A stretch of DNA of 64,000 nucleotides, from assembly GCA_964604155.1 (NCBI GenBank), contig CAZRXY010000120.1, forward strand, positions 85-64,084, given 5' to 3'. Below, piece after piece: positions 40,740-55,374 of the stretch. The DNA comes from an uncultured Candidatus Cloacimonadota bacterium. Its GTDB lineage: Bacteria; Cloacimonadota; Cloacimonadia; Cloacimonadales; TCS61. How positions within the stretch are numbered: position 1 is the first letter of the stretch; every line of letters starts with the position of its first letter. The translations under genes were made by a program, and so were the position numbers. The notes beneath the pieces are model-generated. The model did no database searches, was not told where the DNA came from, and saw only the letters and a list, made by a program, of their open reading frames with translations.

Positions 40740-41732
40740 TTAACGAAATATTTGTCTGGTATATTTGTCCGGGTATCGTGGGTCAAAGCAAGTGATAGCC
40801 AGTTCCGGCAAATGATGTGAGACATTGAGCATTGTAGTATTTCCTATTCTATCGAGCCATGAACCCGTGATGCTGGTGGATTCGTGCACATGCCCGTGAA
40901 TAGTGAGAAGTGGCTGTCTGCAAGTGATAAACTGAAGGATAGCTATGCTGCCAATATGTACATCAAGAGGAGCATATTCTATCATTTTACCATCCAGTCC
41001 AGCACGGTCTAAGGCAGTTTTATAGGGCGGTGCATGAAACAGGCAAATATATTTTGAGAGGTCTTTTGATGTAAAAAGTTTTTCCAGGTCTCGCTTAATA
41101 GTACCCCATTCCATTTCCAGATCATCCACTTCCTTTGTTCTAAATCCCGCATTAGGCGGAATTGCCCCTACATCCACATAGCGGGAGACATCATACTTTT
41201 CCCAGTCCTTGAGTTGAAATGGCGTAGGGGGCACATAAGAATAACCGCATATTGTGTATTCCCGCCATTTACGGCAATTATTATGGGAATAATGCCACAG
41301 TCCCTGCTTTTCCAGAGCAAGGCAACTTGGCTCCAATATCCCCGGGTCATCATTGCCTAATATGATGAATATTTCCGGATAACTCTCTTTCATTTCCTTT
41401 TTCAGCAGTGCCAGATTTTGTCTAAGAAAAATTGAAACAAAATCTTCCACGTTTTCACCCAGGTGAATTTTATATATTCCGCCTGAGATATCACCGGCAA
41501 TAAACACCGCAGCAGGTGCCTCATCGGCAATAACGGCAAATAATCTCTCGTAAAGCTCTCTCCTGCCATGCAAATCCGATACTGCCAGGCAGTTATAACC
41601 ACTATGCATAATATACCTCTCAAAACGGGTACACGGAATCATCATCACGCTAATGTCAAGCAAATTGCCGAAACTCAAGCCAGCCCCGGATTTTTTGTAC
41701 TCCTCTATACTAATCTCAGGAGGCATCATCAT
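40740..41732 (-). CDS. metallophosphoesterase
   Basis: AVSDLHG, AGDI, GNDD and GHVH motifs. I moved the start to the Met cluster at 41732 to avoid an implausible overlap with the divergent kinase gene. The exact start is uncertain. Confidence 0.7.
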   Translation of the reverse strand: MMMPPEISIEEYKKSGAGLSFGNLLDISVMMIPCTRFERYIMHSGYNCLAVSDLHGRRELYERLFAVIADEAPAAVFIAGDISGGIYKIHLGENVEDFVSIFLRQNLALLKKEMKESYPEIFIILGNDDPGILEPSCLALEKQGLWHYSHNNCRKWREYTICGYSYVPPTPFQLKDWEKYDVSRYVDVGAIPPNAGFRTKEVDDLEMEWGTIKRDLEKLFTSKDLSKYICLFHAPPYKTALDRAGLDGKMIEYAPLDVHIGSIAILQFITCRQPLLTIHGHVHESTSITGSWLDRIGNTTMLNVSHHLPELAITCFDPRYPDKYTRQIFR

Positions 41733-41809
41733 TTGGGGAAATATTACCCATATTACTTTACAAATGATCAGTTTTATATAAAATGTCTTCGCTGATAAAG
41801 GAGAGTGAT

Positions 41810-43450
41810 ATGCTAACAATGTCGGAGCTAAACCGGCGAATATTGCGATTAGGGCAGCAGGGTCTGGCACGTCAGGTTTTTTTGGCGAGAGTATCGGAAG
41901 AGCTTTTGCAGTTTACGGATTGTGACGCCTTAGAATTGCGATTAGCGGATGAAATGTTGCAGTATTTATGGCATTATTCTGCTGCTGGTGGTGGTTTTTT
42001 TTATGAAAGTGAATTTATGACGCAGCCTGATGGTAGTCTGGTGCCCTGTCTGGAAAGCGAAAATTTTCAGGAAGCGGTTTGCAGTGAGTTATTTAAAATC
42101 CGCTATAATGCAGAATTAAATTATTACTACAGCCGGCAGAGTATATTAATATCAGATACATATCACGATAAGCATTACAGTAATGGAGAAGGCAACACGC
42201 TGGGAGATGAGACTGGCTATGGTTCCATGATCTTCATCTCATTTATCACGGATGATGATATCCCAGGTCTTTTGATCATAAAAAAAGAAAGGTGCGGTTT
42301 TATAAATCCCGAAGATAAGCTGCTCTTTGAGAGTCTGGCTCAGACCCTCGGGATTGCAATAGCCTTTCGCCGTTCGCAATACGCTCTGGGTGAGCGTTTA
42401 AAAGAGCTATCCTGTCTTCATTCCATTAGTAAATTGCTGCAGGAAAGCGATCTTAATATGGATGAAACCTTCGAAAAACTGGTATCAATTATACCTGAAT
42501 CTTTCCAATACCCCGATGAAACTGCCTGCAATCTTAAGATCAGAGAAATAAATTATAAAACAGCGAGTTATAGAGAAAGCAGCCGCAATTTATGCACTAC
42601 AATAATATCTGACCGCGAGATCGTGGGAGAGCTCACAATTTGCCTCTTAGACAGCCACCTGGATTTTCTGCCGGAGGAGCATGATCTCTGCGAATCGATC
42701 TGCCTTGCTACGGGAGCTCTCTACCGCAAATTGCTTTCTGAAAAAGAGCGTAAGGAAACTGAAGAAAAATTACGTCAGGCAGACCGTCTGGCGACTATTG
42801 GTCAATTGGCAGCCGGTATTGCTCATGAACTTAATGAGCCTCTTTCCAATATTCTGGGGTATGCTCAATTAGCATCAGAATCTGCCTGCGATAAGCAATT
42901 AGTAGAAGACCTGCAAAAAATTATCAATTCCTCGCTTCATGCCCGTGAGATAGTACGAAAACTCCTGCTTTTTTCACGTCAGATGCCTATGCATAAAAAA
43001 CAATTGAATCTGAATGATATCATAGACGAAAGCCTCGAAATTGTGGGAAACCGTTTGAATAAGCATAATATAGAGCTGAGACTTGTTCTTGAAGAAAACC
43101 TCCCGGATCTTACAGCCGATAGTTCCCAGCTCAAGCAGGTGGTTATAAATCTACTAGTTAATGCGGAGCAGGCAATGCCTTCTGGCGGTAGATTAATGAT
43201 CAGCACGATCCATAAAGAGGGGAAAATAGAATTAGAGGTGAAAGATAGTGGCACAGGTATGAGCGAAAGTGTGCAAAAAAAGATTTTCCTGCCATTTTTC
43301 ACAACCAAGAGTCAGGGAGAAGGCACAGGGCTCGGACTTGCTGTAGTGCATGGGATAGTAAAGACCCACGGAGGCACGATAAAAGTAAAATCTGGTTTAG
43401 ATCAAGGCACGAGCATCAGGATAATACTCCCCATTACCGAGAAATACTAA
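41810..43450 (+). CDS. cytoplasmic sensor histidine kinase with two GAF-like modules
   Basis: No TM segments. H-box GIAHELNEPLSNILGY and an HATPase_c core (DSGTGM, GTGLGLAVV). Start at the ATG at 41810 with AAGGAGAG upstream. Confidence 0.85.
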   Translation: MLTMSELNRRILRLGQQGLARQVFLARVSEELLQFTDCDALELRLADEMLQYLWHYSAAGGGFFYESEFMTQPDGSLVPCLESENFQEAVCSELFKIRYNAELNYYYSRQSILISDTYHDKHYSNGEGNTLGDETGYGSMIFISFITDDDIPGLLIIKKERCGFINPEDKLLFESLAQTLGIAIAFRRSQYALGERLKELSCLHSISKLLQESDLNMDETFEKLVSIIPESFQYPDETACNLKIREINYKTASYRESSRNLCTTIISDREIVGELTICLLDSHLDFLPEEHDLCESICLATGALYRKLLSEKERKETEEKLRQADRLATIGQLAAGIAHELNEPLSNILGYAQLASESACDKQLVEDLQKIINSSLHAREIVRKLLLFSRQMPMHKKQLNLNDIIDESLEIVGNRLNKHNIELRLVLEENLPDLTADSSQLKQVVINLLVNAEQAMPSGGRLMISTIHKEGKIELEVKDSGTGMSESVQKKIFLPFFTTKSQGEGTGLGLAVVHGIVKTHGGTIKVKSGLDQGTSIRIILPITEKY

Positions 43451-43459
43451 GGCAAAAAA

Positions 43460-44791
43460 ATGAGTAAACAGGACGTTGTAATACTTGTTGTTGATGATTC
43501 GGCAGATACCCGCGAGATGATCCGCCGGCATCTCCAACCCCATTACTCAGTGGTGATTACTGCTTCCAAAGTGGAAGAAGCAGTTGATCTATTAAATAAT
43601 CGTGATATCGATCTGGTGATCACAGATTACAAAATGCCGGGCACAAGCGGTTTGGAACTGGTGCGTTTTATCAGAGAAAATCTCAGAAATACCGGACTGA
43701 TGATGATCACGGGATATGCTACGATAGAGGGTGCCGTGGTAGCAATGAAACTGGGTGTTGAGGAATATCTCCCCAAGCCATTTACAGGCGAGGAACTGCA
43801 TACCGTTGTCAAATCTCTGTTAAAAAAAGTGAAAGCACGGCAGAGTATAGAATGCGCCCATCAAGACGGCGGAAAATACGGGATAATTGGCTGCTCTAAT
43901 GCAATGCAGGAAGTTTTTGACCTCATAGAGAAAGCCTCTCGCACTTCCGCAACGGTGCTGATTACAGGAGAAAGCGGAACCGGCAAAGAACTGGTAACCC
44001 GAGCTATTCACTACCAAAGCAGACGCAGCTCAGCTCCTTTTGTGCCCGTGAATTGCACGGCAATACCGCAGGAACTGCTGGAAAGTGAATTGTTTGGATA
44101 TGTAAAAGGAGCTTTCACCGGTGCAGATACTTCGCGCGCCGGATTTTTTCAAACTGCCGATGGCGGCACAATATTTCTGGACGAAATTGGCGAAATGAGT
44201 CTGATGATGCAGGCAAAATTGCTGCGCGTCATTCAGGAAAAAGAAGTGTATATGGTGGGTTCTCGCAAACCCTTAGCGGTTAATATCAGGATCATTTCTG
44301 CTACTAATAAAGACCTGCGCAGCCTCGTGGATGCAAGACTTTTCAGAGAAGACCTGTATTACCGACTCAATGTAATCAATCTTAGATTACCCCCATTGCG
44401 GGAACGTGACAGCGATATTCTATTGCTCATAAATCATTTCCTCAGAAAGCATAGCCTGGAAATGAGTACTGAGATACCAGCCATTCAGCAGGATGCTCTT
44501 ATGCTTCTACAGCAATATCCCTGGCCAGGAAATGTGAGAGAGCTTGATAACCTGCTGCATAGATTAGTGGTGATGCATAATGACGCTACTATTACGCCTG
44601 CAGACCTGCCCGAATACATGAGAAATAGCCTGGTACTCGGGAATAATCTGCCTCTGCGTACCCTGGCTGAAATTGAAACTGAACATGTGAAAAAAGTGCT
44701 GGAAAATACAGGCGGTAATAAATCCGAAGCTGCCCGTATCCTTGGTATTGATCGCAAAACTCTACGCAGCAAACTTCAGGAATCCCATTAA
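43460..44791 (+). CDS. sigma-54-dependent response regulator (NtrC family)
   Basis: REC domain (VDDS..DLVITDYKMPG), AAA+ motifs GESGTGKE, GAFTGA and the ESELFG loop, and a C-terminal Fis-type HTH (GGNKSEAARILGIDRKTL). Confidence 0.93.
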   Translation: MSKQDVVILVVDDSADTREMIRRHLQPHYSVVITASKVEEAVDLLNNRDIDLVITDYKMPGTSGLELVRFIRENLRNTGLMMITGYATIEGAVVAMKLGVEEYLPKPFTGEELHTVVKSLLKKVKARQSIECAHQDGGKYGIIGCSNAMQEVFDLIEKASRTSATVLITGESGTGKELVTRAIHYQSRRSSAPFVPVNCTAIPQELLESELFGYVKGAFTGADTSRAGFFQTADGGTIFLDEIGEMSLMMQAKLLRVIQEKEVYMVGSRKPLAVNIRIISATNKDLRSLVDARLFREDLYYRLNVINLRLPPLRERDSDILLLINHFLRKHSLEMSTEIPAIQQDALMLLQQYPWPGNVRELDNLLHRLVVMHNDATITPADLPEYMRNSLVLGNNLPLRTLAEIETEHVKKVLENTGGNKSEAARILGIDRKTLRSKLQESH

Positions 44792-44936: not shown

Positions 44937-44952
44937 TGGCACACTTCGTGCA
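44937..44952 (+). promoter_or_regulatory. sigma-54 (-24/-12) promoter upstream of gdh
   Basis: TGGCAC-acttc-GTGCA compared with the consensus TGGCAC-N5-TTGCA. The GG-N10-GC spacing is correct. It lies 41 nt upstream of the gdh ATG. Confidence 0.7.
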
Positions 44953-44992: not shown

Positions 44993-46279
44993 ATGGAAGT
45001 GAAGGCTTATAATCCATTCAAGATGGCTCAAGCCCAGTTTGACAAGGTGGCAGATATACTGAATCTTGATCAGGGTACCAGAGATTTACTTCGCAATCCT
45101 CTTCGCGAATATCATTGCAGTATTCCAGTGAAGATGGATGATGGCACAACTAAAGTATTTCAGGGATTTAGAGTGCAGCATAATGATGCCCGTGGTCCTG
45201 GAAAGGGCGGCATTCGTTTTCATCCTCATGAAACAGCAGATACAGTGAAAGCATTATCGATGTGGATGACTTGGAAATGCAGCGTGGTAGATATTCCCTT
45301 AGGTGGCAGTAAAGGCGGAGTGATATGTGATCCCCATAATTTAAGCCAGCGTGAGCAGGAATTGATTTGTCGTGGCTGGGTTCGCCAGATAGCTCATGAC
45401 GTGGGACCTCTACGCGATGTTCCGGCTCCCGATGTGATGACTAATGCTCAGCACATGCTGTGGATGCTTGATGAATTTGAGGCGATTCACGGGCAGAAAT
45501 TTCCTGGTTTTATTACTGGAAAGCCCGTTGGAATGGGTGGTTCTCTGGGCAGAACAGAAGCCACAGGTTATGGAGTGATCTTCACTCTAAGAGAAGCATT
45601 ACGCGAACTTGGTATCAATCCGGCAGACACCACCGCCAGCGTTCAGGGCTTTGGTAATGTGGCTCAATATGCAATAGACCTTTACACGCAGTTAGGTGGC
45701 AAGGTTATCTGTGTTTCATGCTGGGATCAGCAGAAGCAGGCATCATACTCTTTTCGCAAGCCAGACGGAGTCGATCTGCAGCAGCTAAAATCTATTACCG
45801 ATCGTTTTGGCGGCATAGACCAGGCAAAAGCACTTGAATTTGGTTATGAAATACTTCCTGGTGATGACTGGCTTGTTCAGGAAGTGGATATCCTCATACC
45901 TGCGGCATTGGAAAACCAGATCCGTGAGGACAATGCGGCAAAAATCAGCGGCAAAGTAAAGGTGATAGCCGAAGGTGCTAATGGTCCCACAACACCGGAA
46001 GCAGATGCAATTATCAAGCAAAAAGGGATTTTTATGATCCCGGATTTTCTGGCAAATGCCGGTGGCGTTACCTGCAGCTATTTTGAGCAGGTGCAATGCA
46101 ATATGAATTATTACTGGGAAAAAGATGAAGTTCTCAGCAAGCTTGATATCAAGATGACTTCAGCATTCCTTGATGTTTCCAAACTTTCAAAAACAAAAAA
46201 ACTCTACATGCGTGACGCAGCTTATGTGATTGCTATCAATCGCGTTGCCCAGGCATGTAAAGATAGAGGTTGGGTTTAG
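44993..46279 (+). CDS. gdhA: glutamate dehydrogenase
   Basis: GPGKGGIRFH, IPLGGSKGG, a GFGNVA Rossmann motif and ANAGGV. ATG at 44993 with GGAGG upstream. Confidence 0.95.
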   Translation: MEVKAYNPFKMAQAQFDKVADILNLDQGTRDLLRNPLREYHCSIPVKMDDGTTKVFQGFRVQHNDARGPGKGGIRFHPHETADTVKALSMWMTWKCSVVDIPLGGSKGGVICDPHNLSQREQELICRGWVRQIAHDVGPLRDVPAPDVMTNAQHMLWMLDEFEAIHGQKFPGFITGKPVGMGGSLGRTEATGYGVIFTLREALRELGINPADTTASVQGFGNVAQYAIDLYTQLGGKVICVSCWDQQKQASYSFRKPDGVDLQQLKSITDRFGGIDQAKALEFGYEILPGDDWLVQEVDILIPAALENQIREDNAAKISGKVKVIAEGANGPTTPEADAIIKQKGIFMIPDFLANAGGVTCSYFEQVQCNMNYYWEKDEVLSKLDIKMTSAFLDVSKLSKTKKLYMRDAAYVIAINRVAQACKDRGWV

Positions 46280-46318
46280 GCTGCCCAATATTACAAAACC
46301 TTCATGTTAGAAAAGAAT

Positions 46319-46339
46319 GGAACCGGTTTTGCCGGTTCC
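46319..46339 (+). terminator. stem-loop after gdh (possible weak terminator or attenuator)
   Basis: GGAACCGG-ttttg-CCGGTTCC forms an 8-bp stem followed by only a weak T-rich tract. Confidence 0.35.
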
Positions 46340-46374
46340 ATTCATTGAAGAGAGCAGAACAGGAGTATGAGCAA

Positions 46375-48099
46375 ATGAATGATATCCCTCAGAGAAAATA
46401 CAGTCGTTTCGATGACAGTAAAACATTCGATTATATTGGCAATGGCGAATTGGGTGGTAAAGCAGCTGGATTAGTACAGATTCAGGAAATTTTTGAGGCA
46501 GAAATATTAGATAATGAATTTGAAAACCTCAATATCGCTATTCCCAAAATGACCGTTTTGCGAACTGATGTTTTTGATGAATTTATGAAGCAGAACGATC
46601 TGTATCCAATAGCTTTATCGGCTATAGATGATGTATTTATTGCTCAGGCTTTTCAAAAAGCCAGCTTACCACCAATTTTCCTGGGCGATCTTAGAAATCT
46701 CATCAGTAAGGCAGATACGCCTTTAGCTATTCGCTCTTCCAGCCTGCTGGAAGATTCTTCTGAAGAACCTTTTGCGGGAGTGTATGCCACAAAAATGCTG
46801 CCCAATAATCAACCTGATACTGAGAATCGCTTTAAAAAACTGATAGAAGCAATCAAATTTATCTATTCTTCACTTTTTTTTGCAGAATCCCGCGATTATT
46901 TTCAGGTGACAGGCAAGGATTTACGTGATGAAAAGATGGCTGTGATCATTCAGGATGTTGTAGGAAACCGCTATGGAGATCATTTTTACCCCCTTATTTC
47001 CGGTGTAGCCCGTTCCTATAACTATTACCCGGTGCAAAACTGCAAACGCGAAGACGGAGTGGTTAATCTGGCACTGGGATTAGGTAAAACCATCGTAGAT
47101 GGCGGCTCATCCTGGTTATACTGCCCGCTTATGCCACAATCTCCACCCCCTTATAACAATATAAAAGACCTGCTCGATAACAGCCAGCGAGACTTCTGGA
47201 CAGTTAAAATGGGTAGGATCAATGAATTTAACCCAATTTCAGAAGTAGAATTTATGGAAAAGCATGATCTGGATAAGGCGGAAGAGGACGGCGTACTCAA
47301 TCTCACCTGCTCAACCTATGATTATATGAACGACGTTCTGATAGCCGGAGTTCAAGGAGCAGGAGCTAGACTTCTAAATTTTGCCCCTGTCTTGAAATAT
47401 GAAAAAATATTCCTAAATAAAGCAATTCGCAAATTACTTGATATTTGCAGCAAACAATACTGCTCAGATGTGGAAATAGAATTTGCCGTGCGGAAAGATG
47501 ATACTTCTAACCAGTATAATCTGGGATTTTTACAAGTCCGAACTATGAAAGTGGCATCTGATGACGGAACAAGCGAAACCTTTGATTATCAGCAATCCGA
47601 CCTTCTGGCAGAAAGTCATTCTGTTCTGGGGAACGGTAAAAGAAATGATATCCTAGATATTGTTTATGTGAAGCCAGATACGTTTTCAGCTATAAACAGC
47701 CGCAATATTGCTCGAGAAATTGCTGCGGTAAACCGCGAACTTGCTGAGCAGAATAAGCCCTATTTATTGATCGGTTTTGGCAGGTGGGGTTCATCTGATC
47801 CCTGGCTTGGCATTCCGGTAACCTGGAGCATGATTTCAGCAGCCCGTACGATAATCGAAGCCACTCTACCACAGATGAAGCCAGACCTCAGCCAAGGTTC
47901 GCATTTTTTCCATAACCTTATTGCCTTTGGCATTTTTTATCTCTCTATCGAAGAAGAAAAAAAGAAAACTATTGACTGGAATTGGCTGGATAGGCAGGAG
48001 ATAATTCACGATGGTGAGTTTGTGAGACATGTGAGATGCTCAAAAAATATCAGCATCATAGTAGATTGTGTAAAAAATCGGGGAGTGATAGTTAAATGA
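46375..48099 (+). CDS. PPDK_N-type (PEP/pyruvate-binding, ATP-grasp) domain protein, no swivel-His domain recognised
   Basis: GGKAAGL, LAIRSSSLLEDSSEEPFAGVY, MAVIIQDVVG, and a C-terminal block GFGRWGSSDPWLG..SQGSHFFHNL. Start at the ATG at 46375. Confidence 0.8.
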   Translation: MNDIPQRKYSRFDDSKTFDYIGNGELGGKAAGLVQIQEIFEAEILDNEFENLNIAIPKMTVLRTDVFDEFMKQNDLYPIALSAIDDVFIAQAFQKASLPPIFLGDLRNLISKADTPLAIRSSSLLEDSSEEPFAGVYATKMLPNNQPDTENRFKKLIEAIKFIYSSLFFAESRDYFQVTGKDLRDEKMAVIIQDVVGNRYGDHFYPLISGVARSYNYYPVQNCKREDGVVNLALGLGKTIVDGGSSWLYCPLMPQSPPPYNNIKDLLDNSQRDFWTVKMGRINEFNPISEVEFMEKHDLDKAEEDGVLNLTCSTYDYMNDVLIAGVQGAGARLLNFAPVLKYEKIFLNKAIRKLLDICSKQYCSDVEIEFAVRKDDTSNQYNLGFLQVRTMKVASDDGTSETFDYQQSDLLAESHSVLGNGKRNDILDIVYVKPDTFSAINSRNIAREIAAVNRELAEQNKPYLLIGFGRWGSSDPWLGIPVTWSMISAARTIIEATLPQMKPDLSQGSHFFHNLIAFGIFYLSIEEEKKKTIDWNWLDRQEIIHDGEFVRHVRCSKNISIIVDCVKNRGVIVK

Positions 48100-51000
48100 C
48101 AGATGAACTTCATATTAAGAATATTCTGAAGAGTCTTAATGAGCGGAAAAAGGAACTGAATTGTATCTACCGCATCGGCGAGATACTCAATGATATTGAG
48201 CAGCCACTCGAAGAAGCGATGAGCCGCATTATAGAGGTAATTCCGCTTGGCTGGCAATATAGCGAAATCTGCACTGTACAGATTGTATATGATGGCCAGA
48301 TTTTCCAGACTGACGGGCACAAGATCAGTGCCTACAAACAAGAAAGCCCAGTAATCATAGATACTAAAGAAGTGGGCAGCTTAAAAATTTTTTATGACCA
48401 AAAAAAAAATATCTATGAGTTCCTCACTGAAGAGCAACAATTATTAAATACTATTGCCGAGAAAATCAGCATATTTCTGCATCGCAGACAATTGAAAAAT
48501 TCATTGGCAGAAATGAAACGGGCTACAATAAATCAGCATCAGAGACCTGAATGGAAAACTATTACCGAGTTGCTCAGGCGTACTGATGCCGATAACTATC
48601 TGAGAATAGCCAGAAAATTAATGAACTATCTATTCTGGATCGGCAGAACAGAATCTATGGTAATTGAAAACTCGGTAGAAAAAGCTCCAGAAAATGTTGA
48701 ACCGGAATATCTGCTATTCACAAATAAACCCGTGAGCAGACAGGATAAGGACAGTCTTCTTGAACAGAGTCGGCAGATATTCATGCTTGCTGAAAATAAT
48801 CTCGATGATGATGAGATACTGCTTAATATTCAAAAATGGCTGCAGGAAGACAAGGTAAGCTTTCTTATTCTTATGTTAGAAGACCTTGCCACTTCACTCA
48901 GCGATATCCAAAGTGCTTTAGAAAGATATTTCTATCTCAGCCTCGATAAAATTGAATTATCTAATTTCACTAAAAAGAACCTCAGCGTTCTGCTTATCTT
49001 GAGATTCTTTACAGATCAATTGGAATTTATCAATATTGCTAAAAATTTTGTGGATATCAATTATTTCCGCGACCTCATCCAGCATATGATCTTTCCCAAT
49101 AACAGCCATGGTAAACTGGGCGGAAAGAGTGCCGGTATATTTCTGGCAAGAAGTATTACTTCTTCTCTCTTTGGCAATAAATTGCACGGCATCAATATCT
49201 CTTACCCCAAAACATGGTGCATCACTTCGGATACTATGCACCGTTTTTTGTATTATAATAATCTGGAAGAGATCATCGAACAGAAATACAAGGATATTGA
49301 ACAAATTCGTTCTGAATATTCTAATATAATACAGCTCTTTAAGAATTCACACTTCCCACCCGAAATCCTAAAAGACCTTTCACGTGCTATAGAGGATTTT
49401 AGCGAAAATCCCATTATTGTCCGCTCTTCAAGCCTGCTGGAAGACCGCGTTGGTGCAGTATTCTCTGGAAAGTATAAAAGCCTCTTCCTGGCAAATCAAG
49501 GCACAAAAGTGGAAAGAATTAGCGCTCTCGCAGACGCAGTGGCAGAGGTTTATGCCTCAGTCTTCTCGCCAGACCCCATTGAATACCGACGCGAAAGAGG
49601 ACTGCTGGATTTCCACGAAGAAATGGCGATTATCATTCAAGAAGTAGTTGGGAAAAAAGTAGGGCATTATTTCCTGCCCGCTTTTGCCGGCGTGGCTTTT
49701 AGCAATAATGAATTCCGCTGGTCTCCCCGCATTAAAAGAGATGACGGGCTCATCCGCATCGTCCCCGGATTGGGCACCAGAGCAGTCGACCGGCTTAGCG
49801 ATGATTATCCTGTGCTTATTGCACCCGGACAACCTGATCTGAGAGTCAATGTCTCTGCAGACGAAATTCTTCGCTATTCTCCACATAAAATTGATGTCAT
49901 AAATCTGGAAAAAAACACCTTTGAGACTATTGAGATAAAATCACTCCTCAAATTGTATGGCAGTGAATATCCCATGGCAGATAAGGTTCTCTCTTTCTAT
50001 CATGATCAATCTATCAGGAATCTAAATATCTTTCAGGTGGATTTTGAAACTGCTGATCCCGTGGTTACTTTCCACGGACTGTCTAATTCTTCACCAGAAG
50101 GTAATTATATCAGCCTGATTGGAGATATTCTCACGATCCTTAAACGAAAAACAAATGGTCCCGTTGATATCGAATTTGCCTGCGATGGCAAAGATTTTTA
50201 CCTTTTACAGTGCCGCGCTCAGAGCTCCGGCTCCGAAAAACAAGTGGTCGCTATCCCCAAAGATATTCCTAAAAAAGATATCCTCTTTAATGCCAATCGC
50301 TTCATTAGTAATGGATATCTTCCTGATATAACGCATATCGTCTATGTGAATCCCGAGGGCTACAGCAATCTTGAAAATCTGGACGATATGAAAAGCGTCG
50401 CCAGAGCCGTAGGCAAGCTTAATAAAACGCTGCCTAAAAGAAAATTTGTGCTAATGGGACCAGGTCGCTGGGGCTCACGTGGAGATATAAAACTCGGCGT
50501 AAACGTTACCTATTCAGATATTAATAATACTTCAATTTTAATAGAAATCGCCAGAAAAGAAGGGCATTTTACCTCAGACCTTTCCTTTGGCACACACTTC
50601 TTCCAAGACCTGGTGGAATCTGAAATCCTTTACCTGCCACTCTATCCTGACGATAAAGATATTATCTTTAATGAAAAATTTTTGCTGGGCTCAAATAATA
50701 TCCTCTCCGAAATTGCTCCCGAATTTGAATATCTCAAGGATACTGTACACGTTATCGACATTCAGGCAACTCGAAAAAACCAGACCCTCAAGATTCTTAT
50801 GAATGCCGATCTGGACGAAGCTTTAGCATATTTTTCTGCAAGTTCTAATTCTGATATTGTGCCGGCTAAACTCATTACAGCTTCCGAGCCAATTCAAGAA
50901 AATTACTGGCTCTGGAGAATGAGAATGGCAGAAAATATTTGCAGAAACATTGATCCTGAGCTATTCGGTATCAAAGCTATGTATATCTTTGGTTCTGTGA

Positions 51001-51272
51001 AAAATGCCAATGCCGGACCTGCCAGCGATATCGATCTGCTTATCCACTTTATCGGCAATAAACAGCAGAAGAATGAACTTCAAAACTGGCTGCAAGGCTG
51101 GAGCCTCTGCCTCTCGGAAATGAATTATCTCCGTACCGGATACAAAACCGACGGCTTGCTTGACGTACACTTTGTCACTGACCAGGATATAAAAGAACAA
51201 AATAGCTATGCTGCAAAAATTGATGCAGTCACGGACGCTGCCAAACCCCTGCCCCTGGGTTTTGCCAAATGA
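48096..51272 (+). CDS. three-part fusion: GAF-like sensor module, PPDK_N-type ATP-grasp domain and C-terminal Pol-beta-type nucleotidyltransferase
   Basis: ATGA overlap with the preceding gene. N-terminal ERKKELNCIYRIGEIL..IPLGWQYSE module. GGKSAGI, IVRSSSLLEDRVGAVFSG, MAIIIQEVVG and GPGRWGSRGD..SFGTHFFQDL. C-terminal IFGSVKNANAGPASDIDLLIHF. Confidence 0.8.
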   Translation: MTDELHIKNILKSLNERKKELNCIYRIGEILNDIEQPLEEAMSRIIEVIPLGWQYSEICTVQIVYDGQIFQTDGHKISAYKQESPVIIDTKEVGSLKIFYDQKKNIYEFLTEEQQLLNTIAEKISIFLHRRQLKNSLAEMKRATINQHQRPEWKTITELLRRTDADNYLRIARKLMNYLFWIGRTESMVIENSVEKAPENVEPEYLLFTNKPVSRQDKDSLLEQSRQIFMLAENNLDDDEILLNIQKWLQEDKVSFLILMLEDLATSLSDIQSALERYFYLSLDKIELSNFTKKNLSVLLILRFFTDQLEFINIAKNFVDINYFRDLIQHMIFPNNSHGKLGGKSAGIFLARSITSSLFGNKLHGINISYPKTWCITSDTMHRFLYYNNLEEIIEQKYKDIEQIRSEYSNIIQLFKNSHFPPEILKDLSRAIEDFSENPIIVRSSSLLEDRVGAVFSGKYKSLFLANQGTKVERISALADAVAEVYASVFSPDPIEYRRERGLLDFHEEMAIIIQEVVGKKVGHYFLPAFAGVAFSNNEFRWSPRIKRDDGLIRIVPGLGTRAVDRLSDDYPVLIAPGQPDLRVNVSADEILRYSPHKIDVINLEKNTFETIEIKSLLKLYGSEYPMADKVLSFYHDQSIRNLNIFQVDFETADPVVTFHGLSNSSPEGNYISLIGDILTILKRKTNGPVDIEFACDGKDFYLLQCRAQSSGSEKQVVAIPKDIPKKDILFNANRFISNGYLPDITHIVYVNPEGYSNLENLDDMKSVARAVGKLNKTLPKRKFVLMGPGRWGSRGDIKLGVNVTYSDINNTSILIEIARKEGHFTSDLSFGTHFFQDLVESEILYLPLYPDDKDIIFNEKFLLGSNNILSEIAPEFEYLKDTVHVIDIQATRKNQTLKILMNADLDEALAYFSASSNSDIVPAKLITASEPIQENYWLWRMRMAENICRNIDPELFGIKAMYIFGSVKNANAGPASDIDLLIHFIGNKQQKNELQNWLQGWSLCLSEMNYLRTGYKTDGLLDVHFVTDQDIKEQNSYAAKIDAVTDAAKPLPLGFAK

Positions 51273-51587
51273 ATAAAGAAAATCACCATAAAAAAAAAAT
51301 AATAACAGAATCTGATGAGAAAATCCAGGAACATCAGGATAAAAAACCTGTTCTAAAGGGATTATGCATTAATTGTGAGCACCGCTTCACCTGCACTCTC
51401 CCCAGACCCGAAACCGGTGTGTGGTATTGCGAAGAATATGAATAATCCCGCAACGCTGATACCGGAAAGCGATTAGCCCGGGTAAATTTTTATACCACCC
51501 TGAAAAGGGTAGTACCATGATAGCAATGGGCGAAACCCGCGGGAGAGTGACACGCACGTGTTTCAACCACTGATCTTGCTTCTACAT

Positions 51588-51683
51588 AAATCCCGGGATA
51601 TATCCCGATTAGGAGGGGGAAGAGGGCATCGCCAAACCCCAGGCTGAATGCACAGGGCTACTCATTTTCTTCTCACTCTTCAC
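51588..51683. repeat. dispersed intergenic repeat, copy A
   Basis: About 80 percent identical by hand alignment to 59382-59478. Shared blocks are cccgggata, atcccgattag, atcgccaa, gctgaa, gcacaggg and tactcattttctt. Confidence 0.7.
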
Positions 51684-51901
51684 AACACCCATCACATCTT
51701 TCAGTAAAAATTGCCTCTACGCCCTCCGCCTGTTATGTCGAACATTCTTCGTAGTATAGTGATCCAAAATCTATTCTTCTCTGATCCCATTATGAACTCC
51801 TTTCACTTTTTCTGAGTCCACTTTTTCAAGGACGCGGCACCGCACCTCGTCTCACTCTTCACTTCTCTCCCTCTACCTTCTCTGTGGTAAAAAAACAGAG
51901 A

Positions 51902-51935
51902 GTATGCCAGCCCCAAATCGAAATGAATTGACATT
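51902..51935 (+). promoter_or_regulatory. conserved upstream motif, copy 2
   Basis: gtatgccag plus the 23-nt block ccaaatcgaaatgaattgacatt, identical to copy 1. TTGACA lies 39 nt upstream of the ruvX ATG. Confidence 0.5.
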
Positions 51936-51971
51936 TTACCCTGTTTTGAAATTGTTCACTCAGGTAGGAAT

Positions 51972-54549: not shown

Positions 54550-55374
54550 ATGTGGAAAAATATTATTGATAAAAAATTGATTGTTATTGACCCCAATATT
54601 AAAGATAAACAGGATCTTTTTGAGAAAATGGTGAATCAGGCTTATGCTGAAGATTATATCATTCATCGTAAAAAATTTCTCTCCGCCCTGCAGGAACGTG
54701 AAGAATTATCTAATACAGAATTATATCAAGGAGTTGCTTTTCCCCATGCTCGCAGTAATGAAGCCAGCCAGGTATTTGTCTCTATTATCATCAGCAAAAA
54801 AGGCATAGATTACGGTAATCCCGAATTGGGTAAAGTGAAACTTATCTTTTTCTTTGGCTGCCCCCTTGATAAAAGCAGAGAATATCTGCAATTACTGGCA
54901 CATACTACCCGTCTTGTACGGGACGATAAGTTCCGCAACAAATTGCTGAAAGCAAAATCTCCTGAAGAAGTGGAAGACATCCTGATTGCTTATGATATAG
55001 AAATGATAGAATCTGAACAGCAGGACAATTTCCTGATGATTTTTGTCCTCAATAAACCAGAACTAACCTCCGAAGTCCTTTCCGCCATGGTCGAAGTGGG
55101 CATTAATAATTCATCCATTGTCGATTCTATCTCCATGGCAAGAAAACTTGCCTACGAAATCCCGGTCTTTGCCGGACTCAGTTACATCGGACAGGGAAAT
55201 TCCAAATCATCCACTATGATCTTCTGCCAGATTAATAATAGACAAACACCAGCAAAACTCACCGAAATCCTCAAATCTAACGGCATCGATATTAATAAAA
55301 AAGGCGTAGGATATATCCAGACCATAAAAATTGATACTCTCATCGGCGAAACCGAAGAAGAAATTGATCTCTAA
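54550..55374 (+). CDS. PTS EIIA(Ntr/Fru)-type domain protein with extra C-terminal domain
   Basis: GVAFPHAR active-site-like motif in the N-terminal half. The C-terminal roughly 110 aa are of unknown function. Confidence 0.75.
   Translation: MWKNIIDKKLIVIDPNIKDKQDLFEKMVNQAYAEDYIIHRKKFLSALQEREELSNTELYQGVAFPHARSNEASQVFVSIIISKKGIDYGNPELGKVKLIFFFGCPLDKSREYLQLLAHTTRLVRDDKFRNKLLKAKSPEEVEDILIAYDIEMIESEQQDNFLMIFVLNKPELTSEVLSAMVEVGINNSSIVDSISMARKLAYEIPVFAGLSYIGQGNSKSSTMIFCQINNRQTPAKLTEILKSNGIDINKKGVGYIQTIKIDTLIGETEEEIDL

Follow-up and report, generated by a model that had tools for sequence, protein, structure and literature searches.

Phosphoenolpyruvate (PEP) synthase, pyruvate phosphate dikinase (PPDK) and rifampin phosphotransferase have a PPDK_N-type ATP-grasp domain with a conserved [ST]-His after it, a swivel phosphohistidine domain (GG-x-TSHAA) and a PEP/pyruvate- or rifampin-binding domain. 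Split dikinases of the HpeI type carry the ATP-grasp as a polypeptide of its own, which needs a partner; their His domain is a subunit of the canonical PEP-utilizers kind, and their substrates are phenolic small molecules. Glutamate dehydrogenase (GDH) links carbon metabolism with nitrogen metabolism. The control of glutamine synthetase (GS) by GlnE/GlnD is well studied, and we know of no dedicated enzyme system for the covalent regulation of a bacterial GDH. Mammalian GDH is inactivated by SelO through AMPylation (PMC12375108), which is a conceptual precedent for the nucleotidylylation of a GDH; SelO, however, is an AMPylase of pseudokinase fold, works in mitochondria on antenna-bearing GDH and has no homology to the proteins described here. 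The latter are encoded by two overlapping genes, called A and B, in a stretch of 64,000 nucleotides (nt) from an uncultured Candidatus Cloacimonadota bacterium (assembly GCA_964604155.1, contig CAZRXY010000120.1, positions 85 to 64,084 of the forward strand); this whole stretch is referred to as the window, and the nearest relative that bears a name is Candidatus Stygibacter australis (Cloacimonadota). The pair lies downstream of a GDH gene (gdh) and is classified here as representing a PPDK_N-family enzyme whose defining swivel domain is replaced by an undescribed domain, the C-terminal domain (CTD), in a conserved GDH-centred module. Its features in the window (lengths in amino acids, aa) are:

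46375-48099, + strand: gene A, 574 aa; PPDK_N at residues 25-402, then the apparently new CTD at residues ~400-574
47572-48096, + strand: CTD of A, with the codon of the invariant His510 at 47902-47904
48096-51272, + strand: gene B, 1058 aa; sensor-like module at residues 13-121, a helical region, PPDK_N at 340-725, CTD at 726-~905 and Pol-beta nucleotidyltransferase at ~940-1058
50595-50597, + strand: codon of His834 in the CTD of B
44993-46279, + strand: gdh, glutamate dehydrogenase of the module-linked clade, 428 aa (Pfam, PDB); proposed target or partner
40740-41609, - strand: calcineurin-like metallophosphoesterase (MPE), 289 aa; proposed eraser

A and B resemble PEP synthase, PPDK and rifampin phosphotransferase in the PPDK_N ATP-grasp and the conserved [ST]-His that comes after it. 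Unlike these dikinases, they have neither a swivel phosphohistidine domain nor a PEP/pyruvate- or rifampin-binding domain; instead they carry a CTD of 175 aa without detectable relative and have GDH as genomic partner, and B has in addition a predicted N-terminal sensor and a C-terminal nucleotidyltransferase. As in the HpeI type, the ATP-grasp proteins A and B are separate polypeptides here, but they are fused elsewhere. With GlnE/GlnD, which reversibly modify a central enzyme of nitrogen assimilation or its regulator, B shares the concept of a large multidomain sensor enzyme with a Pol-beta nucleotidyltransferase; B is linked to GDH. GlnE/GlnD differ in that they have no counterpart of the ATP-grasp and CTD core or of the MPE and in that their target is GS, where GDH would be the target here; no family domains are shared.

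The open reading frame (ORF) of gene A spans 46270-48099 on the + strand. The ATG at 46375 is preceded by AGGAG and is also the start in the JGI record. A sequence-only reading of this stretch had described A and B as a translationally coupled pair of ATP-grasp paralogs, and reading of the junction (...GTT AAA TGA / ATG ACA...) confirmed that the two ORFs overlap by ATGA at 48096-48099. All motifs which that reading had quoted for the two ORFs were found in the translations. Its claim of paralogy, including a shared C-terminal block, was likewise borne out: Pfam PPDK_N (PF01326) matched both proteins (A, 3.4e-33, residues 25-402; B, 1.2e-59, residues 340-725), and the two cores were 29% identical over 545 residues (E 2e-52), the alignment extending through the C-terminal block. 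The AlphaFold model of full-length A (pLDDT 85, pTM 0.83) matched rifampin phosphotransferase (5hv3, 9e-13), HpeI, PPDK and PEP synthase in a Foldseek search of the PDB, in each case with its ATP-grasp part; further matches were 2ols, 1kbl and 5jvl, and HpeI (9goj) was match no. 5. A sequence search of the PDB matched the ATP-binding domain of rifampin phosphotransferase alone (B at 5.8e-6). The motifs GGK, VRSS..ED, (E/D)IEFA and LQxR were invariant across 56 A homologs and 20 B homologs; they occupy what we take to be the nucleotide-binding positions that match the ATP/Mg ligands of PPDK. Judged by these invariant motifs, the ATP-grasp looks catalytically intact in both proteins.

The remaining parts of a dikinase were not detected. 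PEP-utilizers (PF00391) and PEP-utilizers_C gave no match in the whole of A or B (Pfam, E<=0.1), and outside the ATP-grasp neither Pfam nor NCBIfam showed a third, substrate-binding domain, i.e. the PEP/pyruvate TIM barrel (PF02896) or a rifampin-binding domain. NCBIfam dikinase models aligned only over their first ~200 positions, with scores far under the cut-offs. A canonical swivel-His domain or a PEP-utiliser C domain, which would have spoken against the novelty of the pair, was sought with Pfam, a PDB profile and Foldseek, and neither was found; the absence of both from A and B, claimed from the letters, was thus upheld by profile and structure searches. Clustering of flanking ORFs revealed no other pathway or biosynthetic genes conserved around the module, and no PEP-utilizers His-domain subunit was encoded nearby.

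The CTD comprises ~175 residues, is common to A and B and lies directly C-terminal to PPDK_N, i.e. in the position which the phosphohistidine domain, right after the ATP-grasp, has in PPDK and PEP synthase. In a joint alignment of 69 sequences the residues G421, N453, L465, G467, G469, R470, W471, G472, D475, E495, S506, G508, H510, F511 and F512 (A numbering) were invariant, and both paralog families thus keep the form GxGRWGxxD, a Glu and SxG[ST]HFF. The G-[ST]-H motif had been proposed as an invariant candidate phospho-carrier site; its His was invariant as H510 in 56 A homologs and within G832-T833-H834 in 20 B homologs, so that the invariance holds in both families as well as in the joint alignment. 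Neither the C-terminal block of A and B nor that of 20 homologs was matched by a Pfam family (E<=10), and a CTD profile run against PDB sequences (E<=10) retrieved no meaningful chain, be it of a dikinase, of enzyme I or of another protein. The AlphaFold model of the CTD of A alone (pLDDT 89, pTM 0.88) gave a best Foldseek E of 0.018 in the PDB (probability 0.23, TM 0.2-0.3) and no match in BFVD. In the models the conserved His lies in a loop of low pLDDT, read as flexible, that leads from a strand to the N-terminus of a helix, and the Gly-rich GxGRWG loop comes after a strand; both loops may be of the kind typical of phosphate-handling sites. That the CTD is a divergent PEP-utilizers domain, for which a similar local strand-loop-[ST]H-helix pattern would speak, was rejected in view of the missing Pfam, PDB-profile and Foldseek matches. 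The CTD therefore appears to be an undescribed domain. Searches of Pfam, NCBIfam, PADLOC, the PDB and the literature revealed no characterised family with the architecture of A or B, in agreement with the sequence-only reading, which could not name one; nor was a description of the module found in the literature.

Linkage to gdh was investigated in 80 genome loci with 10-kb flanks, which had been collected by phmmer with the window proteins and in which ORFs were called mechanically; nearly all loci, here and below, derive from metagenome-assembled genomes (MAGs) or metagenomes. A and B were both encoded in 52 of these loci, B only in 25 and a fusion in three. Sixty-six loci, from more than 10 phyla, had room upstream, and at least 56 of these carried gdh directly upstream on the same strand at a median gap of 66 nt; several of the misses were artefacts of crude ORF calling in high-GC genomes. 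For the reciprocal test, 80 metagenome loci were fetched with the GDH as query (74-80% identity), 58 of which extended downstream by 600 nt or more. In 53 of the 58, GDH was directly followed by a gene of A or B type, and two more had one nearby on the other strand, so that A or B was found near GDH in 55. All-against-all clustering of the flanking ORFs showed the MPE as the sole further conserved neighbour. The tie to glutamate metabolism, which had been suggested from the position of gdh in this one stretch, was thereby supported from both sides. As to the supposed conservation of the pair, linkage of A, B and gdh in related genomes was confirmed; the conserved unit, however, is gdh with B, usually accompanied by A and MPE.

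The GDH of the window is of the canonical hexameric type. It matched ELFV_dehydrog_N and ELFV_dehydrog in Pfam (7.9e-53 and 3.2e-70) and 1euz in the PDB over its full length (4e-127), and scored 479 bits with NCBIfam GdhA_Arch, under the equivalog cut-off of 750 bits. Its identity to 61 B-linked GDHs of other phyla was 72-76% (median 74%), compared with ~50-55% for A and B, and the linked GDHs form a tight clade. At 33 positions they are invariant and differ from two Thermococcales GDHs, which served as the sole outgroup; these positions include C116, H119, C130, C365 and Q370 (numbered from TTG 44981). The evidence supports the view that this GDH clade and the PPDK_N+CTD proteins constitute a functional unit, because synteny is two-way across many phyla, A and B occur as fusions, signalling input domains are attached, conserved pathway genes are absent and a phosphoesterase co-occurs.

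The MPE showed the full motif set, and its motifs DLHG, GGD, GNDD, LFHxPP and LHGHxHES were invariant in an alignment of 33 sequences. Its Pfam matches were weak (Metallophos_2 and Metallophos_3, E 1e-3 to 5e-3; 19.2 bits against a gathering cut-off of 27). In the window, its start was placed at the ATG at 41609, with the ribosome-binding site GAGAGG. In 30 of 62 related loci B was immediately followed by a gene for an MPE homolog. The presence of MPE homologs tracked that of A: they accompanied 27 of 41 genome loci with A and B but 3 of 19 with B only (Fisher p 6e-4), and 12 of 16 against none of 9 in the metagenome loci (p 5e-4).

Besides the core, gene B encodes a module and a catalytic domain that A lacks. 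Residues 13-121 (48132-48458) aligned with residues 201-307 (42383-42703) of the histidine kinase encoded further upstream (BLASTP E 2e-8); the shared module of ~110 aa has the motif ERxKEL-C-x-Y...IP-x-G-[WF]-Q-Y, is covered by no Pfam model in either protein and is probably an undescribed ligand-binding input domain. At the other end, the Pol-beta nucleotidyltransferase that had been recognised by its signature was substantiated by Pfam NTP_transf_2 (PF01909; residues 955-995, 4.8e-6, 27.3 bits against a cut-off of 21). The motif residues G966, S967, D978-x-D980 and D1023 were invariant in 20 B homologs, which fits the pattern hG[GS]-x9-13-Dh[DE]h plus a third carboxylate. Weak profile matches were obtained with MntA (2e-5), URT1 (4e-4), 2rff, kanamycin nucleotidyltransferase and the PADLOC candidate family PDC-S09; the likeness to terminal uridylyltransferases (TUTases), minimal nucleotidyltransferases and kanamycin nucleotidyltransferase was limited to ~50 residues around the motif. 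B shares the G-S-x10-D-x-D core with MntA, kanamycin nucleotidyltransferase and the TUTases, but MntA-type proteins are minimal, whereas in B the domain forms the C-terminal end of 1058 aa and has no HEPN partner. Assignment of a substrate class from the PDB profile search was abandoned, the matches being generic and at motif level. A defence or toxin-antitoxin system was likewise rejected, as the PADLOC matches span ~35 residues of the nucleotidyltransferase motif and a HEPN partner is missing. No match to GlnE, GlnD, HD, ACT or PII models was obtained in A or B with Pfam and NCBIfam (E<=0.1).

Homologs of A and B are widespread. Thousands of B-like and A-like proteins of ~50-55% identity over full length were observed in metagenomes; nearly all are MAG-derived and bear generic names ('PEP/pyruvate-binding domain-containing protein', 'pyruvate, water dikinase'). 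At least 591 pattern-matching stretches in the GTDB species set encode a B relative, a figure that pools two patterns and is hence no count of genomes. The phyla among the matches listed were Cloacimonadota, Acidobacteriota, Bacteroidota, Ignavibacteria and Calditrichota as well as Zixibacteria, Eisenbacteria, Planctomycetota and Gemmatimonadota. The CTD profile retrieved 1877 representatives of clusters at 50% identity, 1362 of them at E<=1e-10, which fell into length classes of ~570-610 aa (A), ~1040-1080 aa (B), ~1520-1650 aa (fusions with two CTDs), ~765-805 aa and ~990-1040 aa; PPDK_N was directly upstream of the CTD in all ten representatives checked with Pfam. Two A-B fusions in the same order as the genes (P0010 and P0011) are about 1633 aa long.

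Other architectures of the family also adjoin a GDH. A member of 767 aa overlaps a GDH gene (428 aa) by one base. Several Acidobacteriota loci carry, beside the main module, a second pair consisting of a GDH of ~450 aa and a paralog of ~1000 aa with a receiver domain, a DUF5752-like region, PPDK_N and CTD; this second-class GDH is only ~30% identical to the module-linked one. The second GDH and receiver-fused pair was located in Acidobacteriota at:

L028, 14095-18494
L054, 2654-7287
L073, 15182-18937
and in other loci

The GDH-linked classes are A, B and the receiver-fused proteins. Linkage of all PPDK_N+CTD proteins to GDH was ruled out by distant members of ~770-800 aa, three of four of which, as sampled, were without an adjacent GDH. 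Neighbours of such distant members (L166-L168, L163, L169) included T2SS F, LarC-like and hybrid kinase/receiver genes, and their N-terminal ~190-290 aa had no Pfam match.

Of the possible explanations for this module, we favour, without granting it quite an even chance, a system that would modify GDH covalently and reversibly under the control of a signal. B would be a sensor enzyme with two ATP-using catalytic centres, whose N-terminal module would sense a ligand. The first centre would consist of the dikinase-type ATP-grasp and the CTD, the latter standing in for the missing swivel phosphohistidine domain and its G-[ST]-His serving as phospho-carrier or catalytic residue; in the second, the Pol-beta nucleotidyltransferase would move a nucleoside monophosphate onto a hydroxyl group. 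A would be a sensor-less paralog of the ATP-grasp and CTD core acting in complex with B, and the MPE would strip the phospho(di)ester mark. The net effect would be that reversible phosphorylation and/or nucleotidylylation switches the co-encoded GDH in response to a metabolic signal, and in the window the same signal may also drive transcription via the histidine kinase, the NtrC-type activator and sigma-54. The domains, their intact motifs and the genomic associations are observed; that the His is phosphorylated, that GDH accepts the mark, what this mark is and in which direction it regulates are what we infer from them. Cooperation of A and B is suggested by their translational coupling and by the A-B fusion proteins. 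A regulatory character is suggested because the sensor module is shared with a histidine kinase, because a paralog with a receiver domain lies beside a second GDH, because the 767-aa member overlaps gdh and because no biosynthetic genes are conserved around the module. In its most specific form, the proposal is a dedicated signal-sensing covalent-modification system for GDH, the counterpart of GlnD/GlnE for glutamine synthetase, assembled from a dikinase-type ATP-grasp with a phospho-carrier domain of new structure, a nucleotidyltransferase fused to it and an MPE eraser; it would be at work in hundreds of species, most of them uncultured, from Cloacimonadota, Acidobacteriota, Bacteroidota, Ignavibacteriota, Planctomycetota and further phyla; in this form we hold it to be possible and put it forward tentatively.

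Several points weigh against covalent modification of GDH. The evidence for GDH as the target is its genomic association with the module; no module-specific modification site was found on GDH in the comparison with the two Thermococcales GDHs, and no fusion with a GDH was seen among the top 150 CTD representatives or the ten checked with Pfam. The CTD is unlike any phosphohistidine domain, and a carrier role of its His is suggested by positional analogy. About one-third of the loci have B without A or MPE, so that a simple writer/eraser scheme would be incomplete, and the distant members without a GDH neighbour argue that the core chemistry is not intrinsically GDH-specific. Furthermore, every PPDK_N enzyme characterised to our knowledge acts on a small molecule or a glucan, never on a protein. 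The latter point also speaks for the main rival explanation, namely that A and B are metabolic enzymes, the ATP-grasp and CTD phosphorylating a GDH-related small molecule (2-oxoglutarate, glutamate, an imino intermediate or a derivative) and the nucleotidyltransferase nucleotidylating the same or a related one. The outcome would be a new metabolite or effector, or the coupling of ATP hydrolysis to the GDH reaction, with the MPE recycling the product. The nearest folds are indeed those of small-molecule dikinases (rifampin phosphotransferase, PPDK, PEP synthase, HpeI), Pol-beta nucleotidyltransferases also use small molecules, as the kanamycin nucleotidyltransferases matched in the PDB profile search do, and operonic coupling to next-step enzymes is the commonest cause of synteny. 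However, beyond the CTD of 175 aa no recognisable substrate-binding domain is present, signalling inputs such as the module shared with the histidine kinase and the receiver fusions are unusual in pathway enzymes, no further pathway genes are conserved nearby, and two paralogous cores fused into a protein of 1630 aa would be odd for consecutive steps. We consider a metabolic role rather unlikely, though it is the strongest of the competitors.

A and B might also be non-covalent partners, i.e. ATP-dependent assembly, activation or allosteric proteins that bind the GDH hexamer; the conserved His and the nucleotidyltransferase would then act as nucleotide sensors or in autoregulation. The exceptional conservation of the linked GDH clade is what would be expected of a protein with extra partners, and the A-B fusions suggest a large complex; invariance of the catalytic residues of two ATP-grasps and of the nucleotidyltransferase over wide phylogenetic distances points to catalysis, however, and the co-occurring MPE implies a phospho(di)ester bond to be hydrolysed, which makes such a role improbable. 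It is very improbable that adjacency to gdh has no functional meaning and that generic PEP-synthase-like or defence/toxin-antitoxin (MNT-like) proteins merely travel with this gene. Database labels ('pyruvate, water dikinase', 'PEP/pyruvate-binding domain-containing protein'), the weak match of the nucleotidyltransferase motif to MntA and to PDC-S09 and the distant family members without adjacent GDH would agree with such a coincidence, but synteny of 85-95% in both directions, over more than 10 phyla, and the three further family architectures that also adjoin a GDH would not; nor would the lack of a PEP/pyruvate barrel, a swivel domain and a HEPN partner, or a PADLOC match confined to the nucleotidyltransferase motif. 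For a role as non-covalent partners of GDH, a possible lead comes from Bacteroides thetaiotaomicron: going by its title, work by Baggio & Morrison from 1996 is said to describe that GdhA activity depends on one or more trans-acting genes downstream of gdhA. When a B protein of Bacteroidales was used as seed of a homolog search, the names among the top 120 matches were all MAG-derived, and nothing linking the B. thetaiotaomicron downstream genes to A/B was found in the literature; the lead was thus neither supported nor refuted.

In the window, the order of features is MPE (- strand), histidine kinase, NtrC-type activator, sigma-54-like site, gdh, hairpin, A, B and a small ORF C. Those that surround the module genes are:

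41783-43450, + strand: histidine kinase with GAF, the sensor-like module of ~110 aa, HisKA and HATPase_c (Pfam)
43460-44791, + strand: NtrC-type sigma-54 activator with REC, AAA+ and HTH_8 (Pfam, NCBIfam)
44937-44952, + strand: sigma-54-type promoter-like site TGGCACacttcGTGCA upstream of gdh, one mismatch to the consensus
46315-46343, + strand: stem-loop of ~12-13 bp between gdh and A (RNA fold)
51269-51445, + strand: ORF C, 58 aa, small and Cys-rich, ATGA-coupled to the stop of B (ORF listing)

The site upstream of gdh deviates at one position from the sigma-54 consensus TGGCAC-N5-TTGCW and its position is suggestive; sigma-54-type sites in the window as a whole numbered four against 2.6 expected, which is no excess over chance. 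Few related loci had NtrC and the histidine kinase, and one of 56 had a sigma-54 motif before gdh, so that NtrC/sigma-54 control was discarded as a general feature of the module. Of the earlier description of a sigma-54-driven gdh directly upstream of the pair, the position of gdh was thus retained, while the link to NtrC and sigma-54 proved to be a lineage-specific regulatory layer. The intergenic RNA between gdh and A folds into a strong hairpin (-27.8 kcal/mol, z -3.0) with no U-tract, and a comparable hairpin lay right after the stop codon of gdh in 19 of 60 related loci as opposed to 5 of 61 control regions. It is possibly an intra-operon attenuator or mRNA stabiliser, and its pattern fits an expression of gdh above that of A and B, i.e. 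of an abundant enzyme above its scarcer regulators.

ORF C, the third ATGA-coupled ORF, after B, had been overlooked in the sequence-only reading. It is rich in Cys (…GLCINCEHRFTCTLPRPETGVWYCEEYE) and has no family match in Pfam or NCBIfam. Its motif GLCxxCxxRxxC...GGxWxCEEY was found in just three of 80 related loci (L001, L043, L075), in one case duplicated in tandem; with this recurrence ORF C was ruled out as a core component and is regarded as an accessory that occurs sporadically and whose relevance is uncertain. A gap of 525 nt (51446-51971), which is C/T-rich on the + strand and contains no ORF of more than 45 aa, separates ORF C from ruvX. An RNA gene in this gap was rejected, as there was no Rfam match (gathering or E<=1) and no tRNA or tmRNA. 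Farther downstream, following ruvX, mltG and a Na+/H+ exchanger gene, a protein of 274 aa with a PTS_EIIA_2 domain is encoded (54550-55374, + strand); it may be an EIIA of the nitrogen-PTS type and is not conserved alongside the module.

The four-gene module is abundant, almost wholly in uncultured lineages that are relevant to anaerobic digesters, sediments and soils. If the proposed role is true, the widespread misannotation of its proteins as 'pyruvate, water dikinase' would be corrected, a new domain would be defined, one that stands in for the dikinases' swivel phosphohistidine domain, and the organisms that carry the module would possess a new regulatory layer for nitrogen and amino-acid metabolism.

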